From: Puniceicoccales bacterium
GTDB lineage: Bacteria > Verrucomicrobiota > Verrucomicrobiia > Opitutales > JAIRLM01
Assembly: GCA_031275345.1 (NCBI GenBank)
Contig: JAISOW010000005.1
Location: 413 to 64,412 of the forward strand
Length of the DNA stretch: 64,000 bases
Direction: 5' to 3'
Positions 31,815 to 34,295 of this stretch are shown in pieces. The stretch's first letter is position 1; each line of letters starts with the position of its first letter. Below the pieces are notes generated by a model that was not told where the DNA came from, made no database searches, and was given only the letters and a program-made list of their open reading frames with translations. Position numbers and translations under genes: made by a program.

Positions 31815-34295
31815 TCAATTCTGTAGATTGTTACACAATATTTTGCGCATGAGACAGTTTTGCATTGTTAACGGCGAATTCTCTTGCTCCCATAGCTCCA
31901 TGTATTTACCTTCTTCGACAATCTGCACATTTTGCAATTGGCGTTTGGCGGAGTCCAACCTGCTCGCGCAGGACGCTTTTTCTTTTTCCGTAAAATTGTT
32001 TTTTGTGAGTAAGTCCTGCATCCACTGTCTCCCATCTTGTGACACAAACCATCGTAGCATCGTGGCTATTTCATTTGTTAGCGGTGGAAGCTGCACCAGA
32101 GTGTTGGAATGAATCGGTGTCTTCTCGTCTTTGGTCAACCAGGAAATACATTCATCAACTGGCACCTGGCTGTATTTATTATCGTTTTCATGCAGCGCAG
32201 TTGCAAAATTTTTCACAAGATCGGTTTCGTTGTCTCCAAAAGGCCATGGCGGTTGGGAAAGCCCAGCATCGATGACCTTCACAACTCCCGATTCGTCCAT
32301 CATGAGATTTCCCGGATGGCCATCCAATTGGCCAATAATGAAGGCGAACACCTGTGCAATGATGGAAGATTGTAGCATGGTTTCGTTCGGGACAATTTGC
32401 TGCGCTAGTGCCTCCTGCATGGTTCTGTTCCCGGCTGATGTCATAGCAACGTATTCGGGACCAACATTCTGTTCGTCTTTTTCTTGCAAAATTGTTGCTT
32501 CATAGGTGGGAGACTGGGAATTTTTTAACAATTCCTGCATTTTTTTTCCAACCTCCGAAAAAACAATCATCCTTCCCTTCAGGTTTGGATTCTCTTTGGT
32601 CTCTCTCTCGAAGCTAGCACCAAACAAGATATTGTACAAGGACGGATCAGTTCCTGGCGGGCACATTGGTAACAGAAATCGCGGTCCCATCTCGGAAACG
32701 TTGGCCATAAAAATGGTAGATGTCTTTCCCTTGCCTCCAAGACCAACCTCAAAGCGTTTTACTAAAGAGTTATTCACGAGTGGCCTAAAGGAGGCAGGCA
32801 CGTCGACGTCGACAATTGCTGGGTATTTTTCTTCCAATCTCCGTACCTGCTTCAACACATCGTTCGACGGAATAGGCGTGAAGGCGGAGAATGGATCGGT
32901 TGTAACCGATTTCAAAAGGACGGTTGGAGTGGGTAATTCTCCTTGGGCTGAAACCGACCCATCTTGGTTTGAAATCGGCTCCGGAATGCGAATGGCATTA
33001 AAATTAACTTTTGCTTCAGTGTAGCCATGGCGCTCGAGGGCAGCATTGATCGTGGCCACAAATTTTTCCAGTTCTACGTTGTAAATGGAAATTAGCTGCT
33101 GCTTTGTGATGGGAACATCGAGGTATCGAATGGCGTCTATGCCAGTGGAAATGTTGGTGAGCATGGCGACAAAGGCCGCGTGAAGCGATTGGTTTTTTTT
33201 CGCTTCGCTTTTTTCAAATTTTTCCGAAAATCCATTTTGTGGCTTGTTGGCATTTACCGCAACCGTAATTCGTTCGTAGGCTCGGTAAAATTCTTCAATC
33301 GAGGGCCAACCGTTTTCGACAAACCTATTGGATGTACCACCACGCCAAGAGTAACCAAAAGAGTCACCCAACCCACAAAGAATTTTTCCCCGGGACTGTT
33401 CCATGGCCACGGTCTGCTTTTCCGCCGTTTCCATTTGAAACAGTTCCCAGGCGGAATCCCAGAGTTCCGGGGGATTGTTTAGAACCGTTGTGACAAAATT
33501 AGCAACCGGCATCCAGGGTCTTGACCGTAAGGACTGTGGGGTCTGTTGGTAAAAAATCATGACTAGTTCGTTCCACGGCCGTTGTTTTTGAAAAAACGCC
33601 AGCAAGTTTTTTTGCAATTTGTCGGCTGGGTACCGTTCGAGCTCTGGAAGTCGCTCAGACAAGGCGGTCAACTGTTTCCGTATTTCCTCGGTCGAAGGGG
33701 CAGCGTTTGTGCACCACCATTGCGGCGACTGCTCATTTTCCCTACTCGGGAGTTGGGTTGTTTGCGGCAATCGCGCAATGATTTCTTGCACTGCATTCTG
33801 CATTTGTTGCACGAGGATAGAACATTCTGTCGTAGATTCAGACGAAGGCAGTATTGAACTGTTTGCGGCGGCCGGTCCACTGCCTGTGGTAGCAGTACTC
33901 GACGGAGATTCGCCACCCAGGTCATGCAAATTTTCATCGATGCCGGGCTCGACGGCGTGTTCTTTAGATGCCTCATCTTCAGATGTTTCATCATCTTTAA
34001 TGACCGATGTATTGGGCGACTCGTTGTCCTTTTCTTGGATGGTGTGAGAGCTGTTGCTTTGCCACATCGCGGCAAAGAATTGCCGCAAAAAGGAAAAAGA
34101 TAACAGGCCGAAAACGTTCTGGCGCAGTGCGTCAGTCGGTTCCCTCTGCAGGACAAATGGCAGGAGTAGCAGTGACACTGGTACGGTGAGGATCTGGAGG
34201 AGTGTGGCAAGCGGAGTTATTAAAACTTTAAAAAAGCATGGGGCAGATGCAAGAGCTGAACCCGCTCTTGACACAAGTTGTCCGATAAGATGCAT
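31815..34295 (-). CDS. Putative secreted protein-kinase-like (PKL/PI-kinase-like) protein with N-terminal hydrophobic hairpin
   Basis: 826 aa with an ATG start. The catalytic-loop/DFG-like sequence GQLDGHPGNLMMDESGVVKVIDAG is at 32256-32340, with canonical D-N (5) and D-D (18) spacing. A Gly-rich GLGGKGKT lies about 140 aa upstream. The hairpin is FFKVLITPLATLLQILTVPVSLLLLPFVL. Confidence 0.4.
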   Translation of the reverse strand: MHLIGQLVSRAGSALASAPCFFKVLITPLATLLQILTVPVSLLLLPFVLQREPTDALRQNVFGLLSFSFLRQFFAAMWQSNSSHTIQEKDNESPNTSVIKDDETSEDEASKEHAVEPGIDENLHDLGGESPSSTATTGSGPAAANSSILPSSESTTECSILVQQMQNAVQEIIARLPQTTQLPSRENEQSPQWWCTNAAPSTEEIRKQLTALSERLPELERYPADKLQKNLLAFFQKQRPWNELVMIFYQQTPQSLRSRPWMPVANFVTTVLNNPPELWDSAWELFQMETAEKQTVAMEQSRGKILCGLGDSFGYSWRGGTSNRFVENGWPSIEEFYRAYERITVAVNANKPQNGFSEKFEKSEAKKNQSLHAAFVAMLTNISTGIDAIRYLDVPITKQQLISIYNVELEKFVATINAALERHGYTEAKVNFNAIRIPEPISNQDGSVSAQGELPTPTVLLKSVTTDPFSAFTPIPSNDVLKQVRRLEEKYPAIVDVDVPASFRPLVNNSLVKRFEVGLGGKGKTSTIFMANVSEMGPRFLLPMCPPGTDPSLYNILFGASFERETKENPNLKGRMIVFSEVGKKMQELLKNSQSPTYEATILQEKDEQNVGPEYVAMTSAGNRTMQEALAQQIVPNETMLQSSIIAQVFAFIIGQLDGHPGNLMMDESGVVKVIDAGLSQPPWPFGDNETDLVKNFATALHENDNKYSQVPVDECISWLTKDEKTPIHSNTLVQLPPLTNEIATMLRWFVSQDGRQWMQDLLTKNNFTEKEKASCASRLDSAKRQLQNVQIVEEGKYMELWEQENSPLTMQNCLMRKILCNNLQN

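Follow-up and report, generated by a model that had tools for sequence, protein, structure and literature searches.

Few folds are charted as well as the protein-kinase-like (PKL) fold, yet newly recognized bacterial families that adopt it continue to reveal unexpected chemistry and host targets, as in SidJ, SelO, MavQ, and HopBF1. Phosphoinositide (PI) kinases are an established kind of bacterial effector, represented by LepB, MavQ, and AnkK/OpiA (PMC9758233). LepB, MavQ, AnkK/OpiA/LegA5, and the Rickettsia PI3K effector have atypical, fast-evolving PKL domains, come from intracellular bacteria, and act at host membranes (PMC9758233, PMC12607708). Here we analyze a gene whose product ends in a PKL domain, located on the minus strand at positions 31815-34295 of a 64,000-nucleotide stretch of a Puniceicoccales bacterium (contig JAISOW010000005.1, positions 413 to 64,412, assembly GCA_031275345.1). 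The whole stretch is called the window and the product of the gene the window protein. In the public annotation, the gene is LBP65_02380 of a Puniceicoccales metagenome-assembled genome (MAG), a 'hypothetical protein' of 757 amino acids (aa) that starts at the TTG codon of Leu70 of the protein described here.

The window protein had no significant sequence match to the LepB-type effectors, its host lineage is Verrucomicrobiota, and a hydrophobic anchor takes the place of their lipid-binding or GTPase-activating domains. One member of its family (P0017) was aligned to nearly the whole LepB_N model (PF18640, positions 19-180 of 183), below threshold with 18 bits against a cutoff of 25; no LepB_N match was found in the window protein itself. 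The window also encodes a Cys-phosphatase with the motif HCKAGxGR, which resembles the pairing of PI kinases with CX5R phosphatases in Legionella. Proteins of the ABC1/UbiB family (PF03109) share the sequence D-x-H-P-G-N … D-x-G with the window protein, and both are membrane-associated. That match, however, covers only about 40 residues (13.6 bits vs. 22.9), and UbiB is a single-copy core gene, whereas the family described here is multi-copy, non-syntenic, and lineage-restricted.

The family that the window protein represents is new, but its superfamily and its functional kind, the bacterial atypical kinases, are already known, and it is not a new kind of system. With somewhat better than even confidence, we read it as a modular, membrane-tethered accessory kinase, probably directed at a host, for which a lipid substrate is slightly favored. 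The family is unannotated and can be folded confidently, and how its lineage interacts with hosts has hardly been studied. Its conserved anchor-linker-kinase architecture, its multi-copy expansion, and the anchored low-GC orphan open reading frames (ORFans) around it, including the Cys-phosphatase, offer an entry point to possible host manipulation by verrucomicrobial symbionts of termite-gut protists.

A divergent kinase fold at the C-terminus

The gene and the features of its catalytic part are as follows.

31815-34295, minus strand: complete coding sequence of 826 aa, with an ATG start at 34295 and the stop codon at 31815-31817
31818-32747, minus strand: protein-kinase-like catalytic domain, aa 517-826 (AF2 model, Foldseek, family profile)
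32718-32744, minus strand: glycine-rich loop GLGGKGKTS, aa 518-526, between beta1 and beta2 (alignment, model, N-lobe profile)
32670-32672, minus strand: Leu542 at the beta3 position, in the column that aligns with the VAIK Lys of GSK3 and PKR
32256-32339, minus strand: catalytic loop and metal-binding loop, aa 653-680 (IIGQLDGHPGNLMMDESGVVKVIDAGLS), reading G-Q-L-D658-G-H-P-G-N663 … I-D676-A-G

A first-pass annotation made from the DNA alone had pointed out the D-x-H-P-G-N…D-A-G peptide and proposed a kinase-like core on the basis of its spacing. The peptide and its place were correct, while its end lies at 32339 and not at 32340. The spacing was confirmed, since D658 is followed by N663 (+5), D676 (+18), and G678. 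When the window protein was shuffled 200,000 times, the pattern D.H..N.{12}D.G was present in 0.003% of the shuffles (a chance of about 3e-5) and the looser pattern D....N.{12}D.G in 0.3%.

Structure prediction by AlphaFold (AF2) gave a mean local confidence (pLDDT) of 35 without an alignment. With an alignment of 22 kinase domains (A1, described below), pLDDT rose to 91.9 with a predicted TM-score (pTM) of 0.92, and the confidently modelled region spanned aa 480-826 (window 31818-32858). In the model, three N-terminal helices are followed by strands beta1-beta2-beta3, short helices and one long helix, beta4-beta5, and a hinge (M-T-S-A-G). The second half consists of two helices (one of them alphaE-like), the catalytic loop, two short strands, the DFG-like Asp, and a helical C-lobe. 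Foldseek found 913 matches to this model in PDB at E <= 1e-3, and all 50 listed were protein-kinase-fold structures, the top match among them being PknB (6.5e-6, probability 1.00) and the TM-scores ranging from 0.29 to 0.43. The search against BFVD gave 91 matches, mostly annotated kinases among those listed, with TM-scores of 0.26-0.44. The bilobal fold, the Asp/Asn +5/Asp ~+18 arrangement, and the beta1-beta2 glycine loop that characterize the PKL superfamily were all found in the window protein; the beta3 Lys (VAIK) and the alphaC Glu were not (Leu542, Asp550). The predicted structure indicates that the C-terminal ~310 residues adopt a real but very divergent kinase fold, in agreement with the bilobal, kinase-like fold that the first-pass annotation had called for.

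The string GLGGKGKT (aa 518-525, window 32721-32744) lies 133-140 aa before D658, as had been noted, but its fit to a Walker-A pattern, pointed out there too, is a coincidence. Because a string of the form G....GK[ST] appeared in 3.2% of the same shuffles, the match is weak evidence on its own. In the model, G521-x-G523 sits in the loop of a beta-hairpin, between the strands at model residues 38-43 and 48-54, and the GK[ST] is unique to the window protein and not conserved in homologues. A P-loop NTPase was discarded as a candidate on these grounds. The string is read as the glycine-rich loop of a kinase because a profile of the N-lobe aligned the family G-x-G with kinase glycine loops and the family consensus, GxGxxS, is without GK[ST].

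A multi-copy accessory family of Puniceicoccales

The gene had been called an ORFan, and a word-index search for homologues did return only the window protein itself (LBP65_02380); a family profile in a second attempt found two proteins only. The exhaustive search corrected this view. When aa 170-826 were compared by phmmer with 1.84 billion representatives, 30 homologue clusters were found at E <= 1e-3, 21 of them at E <= 1e-10, and the best non-self match had E = 1e-86. Most homologues have in common the C-terminal ~310 residues, and a subset also has the region of aa ~190-516.

Alignment A1 comprised the kinase domains of 22 sequences with 20-43% identity to the window protein. Five positions were invariant in all 22 domains (D658, N663, I675, D676, and E772), so that the catalytic motif, whose conservation the first-pass annotation had left to be checked, is retained throughout with D658, N663, and D676. 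Nearly invariant were G523, R575, M618, G622, Q648, G655, P682, P737, P738, and R779. The conserved blocks in the N-terminal part are G-x-G-x-x-S, (I/L)-(R/K), an acidic residue, Y-E-x-x-T-Q-x-N-P-N-L-x-G-R, S-P-T, and M-T-S-A-G-D. Those in the C-terminal part are Q…G-Q-L-D-G-H-x-G-N…A-I-D-P-G-L-T-F-P-P, L-P-P-L-T, F-T-x-x-E-I-x-A-x-x-x-R-L, and S-P-F-T-x-x-N-C-x-L-R-R.

All named members belong to Puniceicoccales MAGs (LBT98, LBC42, LBS68, LBI69, LBI34), the others are unnamed JGI metagenome proteins, and every member is labelled 'hypothetical protein'. A genome scan with a 4-sequence alignment located family members in GTDB in the MAGs Roe453_bin74 and Po218_bin38. Three copies stand in tandem in one MAG (LBS68_01920/25/30, locus L003), and a second MAG carries five or more, among them the copy that ends a 4270-aa protein. 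At L002 and L003 the kinase genes have neighbors different from those in the window, without synteny, and the gene is therefore accessory and non-syntenic. The sequence comparisons place the window protein in an unannotated, fast-evolving, multi-copy accessory family that has so far been found only in Puniceicoccales, with at least one member MAG from a lower-termite gut. No paper on this kinase family or on genomes of termite-gut Puniceicoccales was found in our literature search.

Several of these loci have features of their own. At L003 (MAG Po218_bin38), full-length kinase paralogues stand in tandem at 6035-8425, 8429-10942, and 11050-13356, and a gene for the large subunit of a phage-type terminase (2427-3836) is found two genes upstream of the array, which may represent a prophage remnant or a mobile context. 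The 4270-aa protein (P0015, LBI69_04665) has a hydrophobic block at aa 3417-3488, a spacer of ~450 aa, and the C-terminal kinase domain at 3939-4265; the distance from block to kinase domain equals that in the window protein. Outside this kinase module, P0015 gave a weak TPR match only. At L001, positions 2298-2663 downstream of the gene for P0026 encode a 121-aa product similar to the C-terminal kinase part (window protein aa 675-819, E = 3e-4), which could be either a fragment or an orphan C-terminal module.

Placement within the kinase-like superfamily

When the A1 profile was searched against PDB sequences, 246 matches were obtained at E <= 10, and the 60 listed were PI3K, PI4K, or PIKK entries except for one GSK3. 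The best match was PI3K-C2alpha (E = 1.8e-5), with an alignment that begins at the hinge, includes GxxDRHxxN, and reaches HIDFG. When the members were scanned one by one against Pfam, PI3_PI4_kinase (PF00454) was matched at some level by 6 members out of 22 and ABC1 by 5 of them. The PI3_PI4_kinase score of P0016, 28.6 bits, exceeded the gathering cutoff of 27.1, and the five other members scored 14-16 bits. One relative matched Pfam Pkinase at 1.6e-5. The comparison with PI3/4-kinases made in the first-pass annotation was supported by these profile matches.

The window protein alone scored below every threshold. It reached 12.4 bits (E = 0.15) against PI3_PI4_kinase (cutoff 27.1), 13.6-15.3 bits over the 42 residues of aa 642-683 against ABC1 (cutoff 22.9), and 12.3 bits against the UbiB model TIGR01982 (cutoff 487). 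ABC1/UbiB was the only Pfam/NCBIfam family that it touched by itself, and a phmmer search of PDB with the window protein alone gave no matches. Pkinase (PF00069) was not matched by the window protein, in which the loop reads Q-L-D-G-H and not H-R-D, and no APE motif was found in the alignment. By these searches the window protein is outside every curated family.

The window protein is like PI3K/PI4K/PIKK proteins in the bilobal PKL fold and in the sequence G-x-x-D-x-H-x-x-N, followed after 12 residues by I-D-x-G. Checked against GDRHxxN/HIDFG, the D, H, N, I, D, and G positions were present and aligned. Differences were found at the Arg of DRH, which is Gly; at the Phe of DFG, which is Ala in the window protein (DAG) and Pro in the family (DPG); and at the beta3 position, which is Leu, Arg, or Lys. 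The family also lacks the helical or C2 accessory domains of PI3K-type proteins and their basic activation loop, the segment after the DFG-like motif being a conserved L-T-F-P-P-(F/W)-x-x-G without conserved basic residues, unlike the aligned segment of p110beta. Motifs unique to the family are E..T..NPN..GR, TFPP, LPPLT, and SPFT..NC. As judged from sequence, the active-site signature (GQxD-x-H-x-x-N … I-D-x-G) is closest to PI3K/PI4K-type kinases and less close to ABC1.

The beta3 position

A profile restricted to the N-lobe gave marginal matches (E = 0.08-0.9) to the N-lobes of GSK3 and PKR. It placed the family G-x-G on the kinase glycine loop and a conserved Arg on the VAIK lysine of both kinases. 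At this column, 20 of 23 relatives have Arg (mostly) or Lys, and Leu542 is found in the window protein, Asn in P0015, and Gln in P0026. The remark in the first-pass annotation that no obvious VAIK lysine is visible holds at the aligned column. The acidic column is Asp550 in the window protein and Glu in 18 of the 22 aligned domains. All catalytic residues other than the beta3 basic residue are intact in the window protein. Its activity is uncertain because Leu542 occupies a column that is basic in 20 of the 23 relatives. With Arg in most members, Lys in others, and neither in the rest, the beta3 position makes the family a natural experiment in kinase catalysis.

The glycine loop of the window protein contains K522 and K524, both missing from the family consensus. 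WNK kinases, which have their catalytic Lys in the glycine loop, are similar in that the beta3 basic residue is missing and lysines are present in the loop. The lysines of the window protein, however, are at G1+1 and G2+1 and not at the G2+3 of WNK, and no clean covariation between loss of the beta3 Arg/Lys and gain of a glycine-loop Lys was seen across the family. The window paralogue may be weakened, or may use Lys522 or Lys524 of the glycine loop instead; a WNK-like displacement of the lysine is only a hypothesis.

The N-terminal anchor, the linker, and the start codon

The regions upstream of the catalytic domain are as follows.

34146-34253, minus strand: hydrophobic anchor, aa 15-50 (LASAPCFFKVLITPLATLLQILTVPVSLLLLPFVLQ), with a T-V-P turn (Kyte-Doolittle scan)
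34062-34133, minus strand: conserved amphipathic segment, aa 55-78 (DALRQNVFGLLSFSFLRQFFAAMW), with the motif F-x-F-L-R-x-F-F; contains the NCBI start
33789-34061, minus strand: acidic, Ser/Thr-rich low-complexity linker, aa 79-169, recognized from the sequence and outside all homologue alignments
32748-33788, minus strand: family-specific middle domain, aa 170-516, shared with 8 homologues

The anchor is an uncharged, hairpin-like block of 36 aa. Because its second arm is short (~11 aa), the topology (a two-pass hairpin, a re-entrant wedge, or a single pass) is uncertain. The amphipathic motif reads F-S-F-L-R-Q-F-F in the window protein. At their N-termini, P0003/4, P0007/10/11, P0021/22/25/30, and P0032 likewise have a hydrophobic block, 35-58 aa long, with (F/I)-x-(F/M)-(L/R)-(R/H)-x-(F/I)-F after it. 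Residues 23-91 of the window protein align with aa 16-84 of P0011 (E = 4e-8), and residues 41-120 are matched by coding sequence in locus L003. These comparisons show that the N-terminal anchor is conserved among the paralogues and homologous between them.

The linker is predicted from its composition to be disordered. The middle domain has the invariant residues F325, P331, A339, P395, Y405, N406, L409, and N417; no Pfam match was found for it, and a profile search against PDB gave none. The first-pass annotation had described the N-terminal 500 aa as unrecognisable. This applies to the middle domain, which matches nothing known, but the region as a whole resolves into a conserved anchor, a linker, and a domain specific to the family.

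The TTG start in the NCBI annotation drops the conserved hydrophobic anchor and splits the FxFLRxFF motif (window 34088-34295, minus strand). The ATG at 34295 is the better start because the TTG at Leu70 cuts through the conserved N-terminal module, and the NCBI start of LBP65_02380 is probably a miscall.

The description of the gene as 'hairpin-anchored' in the first-pass annotation was borne out for the protein, in the form of the conserved N-terminal block at aa 15-50, and was not supported if a nucleic-acid hairpin is meant. RNA-structure z-scores were -0.7, -1.4, and +0.5. The 415-bp gap downstream (31400-31814) was found to be free of Rfam families, tRNAs, and significantly stable structures, and Rfam and tRNA scans of the whole window gave no matches. 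The sole terminator-like element of the gap is a weak 5-bp CCGGA/TCCGG stem at 31494-31508, ~300 nt past the stop codon. An RNA or terminator hairpin anchoring the gene was rejected on the z-scores and the weakness of this stem.

The Inc proteins of Chlamydiae are alike in having an N-proximal uncharged hydrophobic block (35-58 aa in this family, a two-pass length) followed by a variable soluble domain, and in being encoded by many paralogous, low-GC, lineage-specific genes in a bacterium of the Planctomycetes-Verrucomicrobia-Chlamydiae (PVC) superphylum. They differ in that no sequence similarity to the window protein was found and in that its block is shorter, with 36 aa and a short second arm, compared with ~40-60 residues for the bilobed domain of Inc proteins and 35-58 aa in the relatives. 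A further difference is that the window showed no type III secretion genes. We know of no Inc protein with a kinase domain.

The composition of the gene is also atypical. Its GC content is 47.4% and its GC content at third codon positions (GC3) 0.50, against 57% and 0.627 +/- 0.026 for 20 core genes in the window, so that GC3 is ~5 standard deviations lower; the label 'AT-rich' in the first-pass annotation is right in this relative sense.

Proposed function and alternative readings

In the mechanism that we propose, the N-terminal anchor, which comes with an amphipathic helix, would hold the catalytic domain at a membrane surface. D658 as the base, N663 and D676 as Mg2+ ligands, and the glycine loop would bind Mg-ATP, and the phosphate would be transferred to a membrane-proximal substrate. 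The protein would act on the host, either as an effector or as a surface protein of a symbiont that is associated with protists.

The MAGs labelled Roe453 were recovered from the gut of Roisinitermes ebogoensis, a lower termite (PMC11707648). Flagellates and ciliates of termite guts harbor Verrucomicrobia of the 'Nucleococcus cluster' as symbionts in the nucleus or the cytoplasm (PMC8204192), and we infer that the window organism is a protist symbiont of this kind. A host-directed role, which we put at about even chances, is favored because of the accessory behavior of the family, its eukaryote-like signature, the other anchored ORFans and the phosphatase of Cdc14 type in the window, and the habitat among termite-gut protists. 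As the substrate, a lipid or phosphoinositide head group is preferred slightly to protein because of the profile similarity and the membrane tethering, though at less than even odds.

Several observations weigh against this proposal. Endosymbiosis of the window organism is itself a matter of inference. No secretion system or signal was identified in the 64-kb window except for one prepilin-type N-methylation protein, and the N-terminal hairpin could equally well hold the protein on the bacterial inner membrane. The Foldseek TM-scores are low (0.26-0.44), and the best structural matches are classical protein kinases, not PI3Ks. The scores of the window protein against PF00454 and PF03109 are below threshold. 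The beta3 basic residue is missing in the window protein and is mostly Arg in the family, and classical protein kinases are inactivated when this Lys is changed to Arg; the PKR entries matched by the N-lobe profile read 'VIRRV' at that place. Against a lipid substrate in particular, the basic activation loop is absent and Foldseek prefers protein kinases.

A protein substrate for the same architecture, which would make the window protein a membrane-tethered Ser/Thr (or Tyr) kinase effector like LegK, NleH/OspG, or a PIKK-type enzyme, is possible but rather unlikely. The top Foldseek matches in PDB and BFVD (PknB, MAPKs, and Ser/Thr kinases of giant viruses) agree with it, but the rankings are biased because entries of eukaryotic protein kinases (ePKs) are very numerous in PDB. 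The single Pkinase match within the family (1.6e-5) and the lack of a conserved basic activation loop of the PI3K kind also speak for a protein substrate, as do the PIKKs among the profile matches (DNA-PKcs, SMG1), which share the PI3K-like signature and phosphorylate proteins. On the other hand, HRD, APE, and other ePK subdomain motifs are missing, and the profile similarity is 27 bits to PI3K/PI4K and 18 bits to ePKs, the ePK part being limited to the glycine loop.

Improbable, in our judgment, is an enzyme of bacterial housekeeping type, which would face the cytoplasm from the bacterium's own inner membrane and phosphorylate a bacterial lipid, an envelope precursor, or a small molecule (compare UbiB/ABC1 and APH/ChoK). 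The weak local similarity is indeed to ABC1/UbiB, a hydrophobic hairpin would leave both termini in the cytoplasm, where ATP is available, neither a secretion signal nor a secretion system was found in the window, and the gene is placed between the core genes cysS and dnaA. The ABC1 match, however, is confined to ~40 aa at the catalytic loop (13-15 bits vs. 22.9). Unlike a core metabolic enzyme, the family is multi-copy, divergent (20-43% identity), non-syntenic, compositionally atypical, and present in one lineage only, and one of its copies is a fusion to the end of a giant protein of 4270 aa.

We give a similarly low probability to a pseudokinase, or to a family with another chemistry, such as AMPylation as in SelO or glutamylation as in SidJ, whose window member would bind a nucleotide or a partner without phosphotransfer. 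Bacterial PKL effectors provide precedents for atypical chemistry (PMC9758233). The window protein has Leu542 in place of the beta3 basic residue and Asp550 in place of the family Glu. Most relatives have Arg and not Lys at beta3, as is typical of inactive classical protein kinases, in which a change of this Lys to Arg abolishes activity. In pseudokinases, however, one or more of the catalytic-base Asp, the Asn, the DFG-like Asp, and the glycine loop are usually gone, whereas the three residues are invariant in 22 of 22 domains including the window protein and its glycine loop is intact. The retained equivalent of the HRD Asp argues for classical phosphotransfer.

An interbacterial toxin, in which the kinase would be the C-terminal toxin of a polymorphic-toxin-like system directed at competing gut bacteria, is very improbable. 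The position of the kinase domain at the extreme C-terminus of the 4270-aa giant protein in one MAG would suit such a system, as would the tandem arrays, the short C-terminal-like gene downstream of P0026, and the phage terminase gene near the L003 array. Nevertheless, scanning 20 members against Pfam revealed no recognizable delivery domains (Rhs, CdiA, PAAR, MIX, and the like), and toxins do not usually carry a hydrophobic anchor at the N-terminus. In the window, the kinase gene is not followed directly by a small immunity-like gene; beyond the 415-bp gap lies a 368-aa ORF with core-like GC.

A chance motif in a spurious or decaying ORF, suggested by the low GC, the lack of annotated homologues, and the failed Pfam thresholds, is effectively refuted by the 2.5-kb open frame, the 30 homologue clusters down to E = 1e-86, the invariant catalytic residues, and the very confident alignment-based fold prediction.

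Returning to the membrane-tethered, host-directed kinase, a broader version can be formulated, which we regard as doubtful. Protist-associated Puniceicoccales, of a PVC lineage that is a sister of Chlamydiae, would deploy Inc-like hairpin-anchored proteins, including the PI-kinase-like family and the Cdc14/PTEN-type phosphatase, that would become inserted in a host membrane and rewrite its phosphoinositide or phosphoprotein identity. If this were true, the hijacking of membrane identity known from Chlamydiae and Legionella would extend, through common descent or convergence, to the symbionts of flagellates in termite guts.

Genomic context

The window is ordinary chromosome. Its core genes include ftsQ, ddl, a murC-murB fusion, murG, an rpiB-SHMT fusion, cysS, a 3'-5' exonuclease gene, def, dnaA, and dapF, and further clpP, fabV, glgB, deoC, gap, atpB, nadK, tpi, and a signal peptidase gene. 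The kinase gene lies between cysS, which is 145 bp upstream on the same strand, and dnaA.

Among core genes with GC3 of ~0.63, ORFans with low GC3 (0.41-0.53) are interspersed. Those of GC3 0.41-0.51 without a Pfam family above threshold are at 26810-29989, 8412-10364, and 1772-3280 on the minus strand and at 942-1556, 54219-55412, and 57414-58715 on the plus strand. An N-proximal uncharged hydrophobic block of 29-41 aa is present in four window ORFans (26810-29989, 8412-10364, 942-1556, and 54219-55412). The anchor of ORF 8412-10364, which is not a kinase, is similar to that of the kinase homologue P0029 (33% identity over 67 aa, E = 2e-4 in a small database), which hints that the anchor may be a reusable module. 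The window ORFans may represent a repertoire of anchored accessory or effector proteins. No kinase paralogues were found within the window; a weak tblastn match of the motif region in ORF 1772-3280 (E = 4.5) was dismissed as spurious, the ORF being without a kinase motif.

The 631-aa ORFan at 5529-7424 on the minus strand has a C-terminal Cys-phosphatase signature, F-M-D-G…H-C-K-A-G-V-G-R-S. Its best PDB match was Cdc14B (2.2e-4), and it scored 22.1 bits against Pfam DSPc (threshold 33.5). The PTEN/Cdc14-like phosphatase reported ~25 kb away in the first-pass annotation corresponds to this Cdc14-type Cys-phosphatase. The first-pass annotation raised opposing host phospho-signalling activities of the phosphatase and the kinase as a possibility, and this pairing is hypothetical. 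The phosphatase gene is not in an operon with the kinase gene, because the two are 24 kb apart with the division and cell wall (dcw) cluster and other core genes between them.

Some further genes of the window are unusual. The 852-aa ORF at 15836-18394 (minus strand) is an apparent fusion of Mur-ligase (MurC-like) and MurB domains, and the 572-aa ORF at 19652-21370 (plus strand) is an apparent fusion of RpiB/LacAB and serine hydroxymethyltransferase domains. The dnaA gene (38041-39477, plus strand) is separated from the kinase gene by 3.7 kb, which suggests that the replication origin may be close by; the GC skew of the window has no clear switch there. An 'uncharacterised nucleotidyltransferase' ORF (PF14907) at 22132-24729 (plus strand) precedes a group of ORFs among which a weak PqqD-like match was obtained, a pairing that occurs in gene clusters for lasso peptides and related ribosomally synthesized and post-translationally modified peptides (RiPPs).

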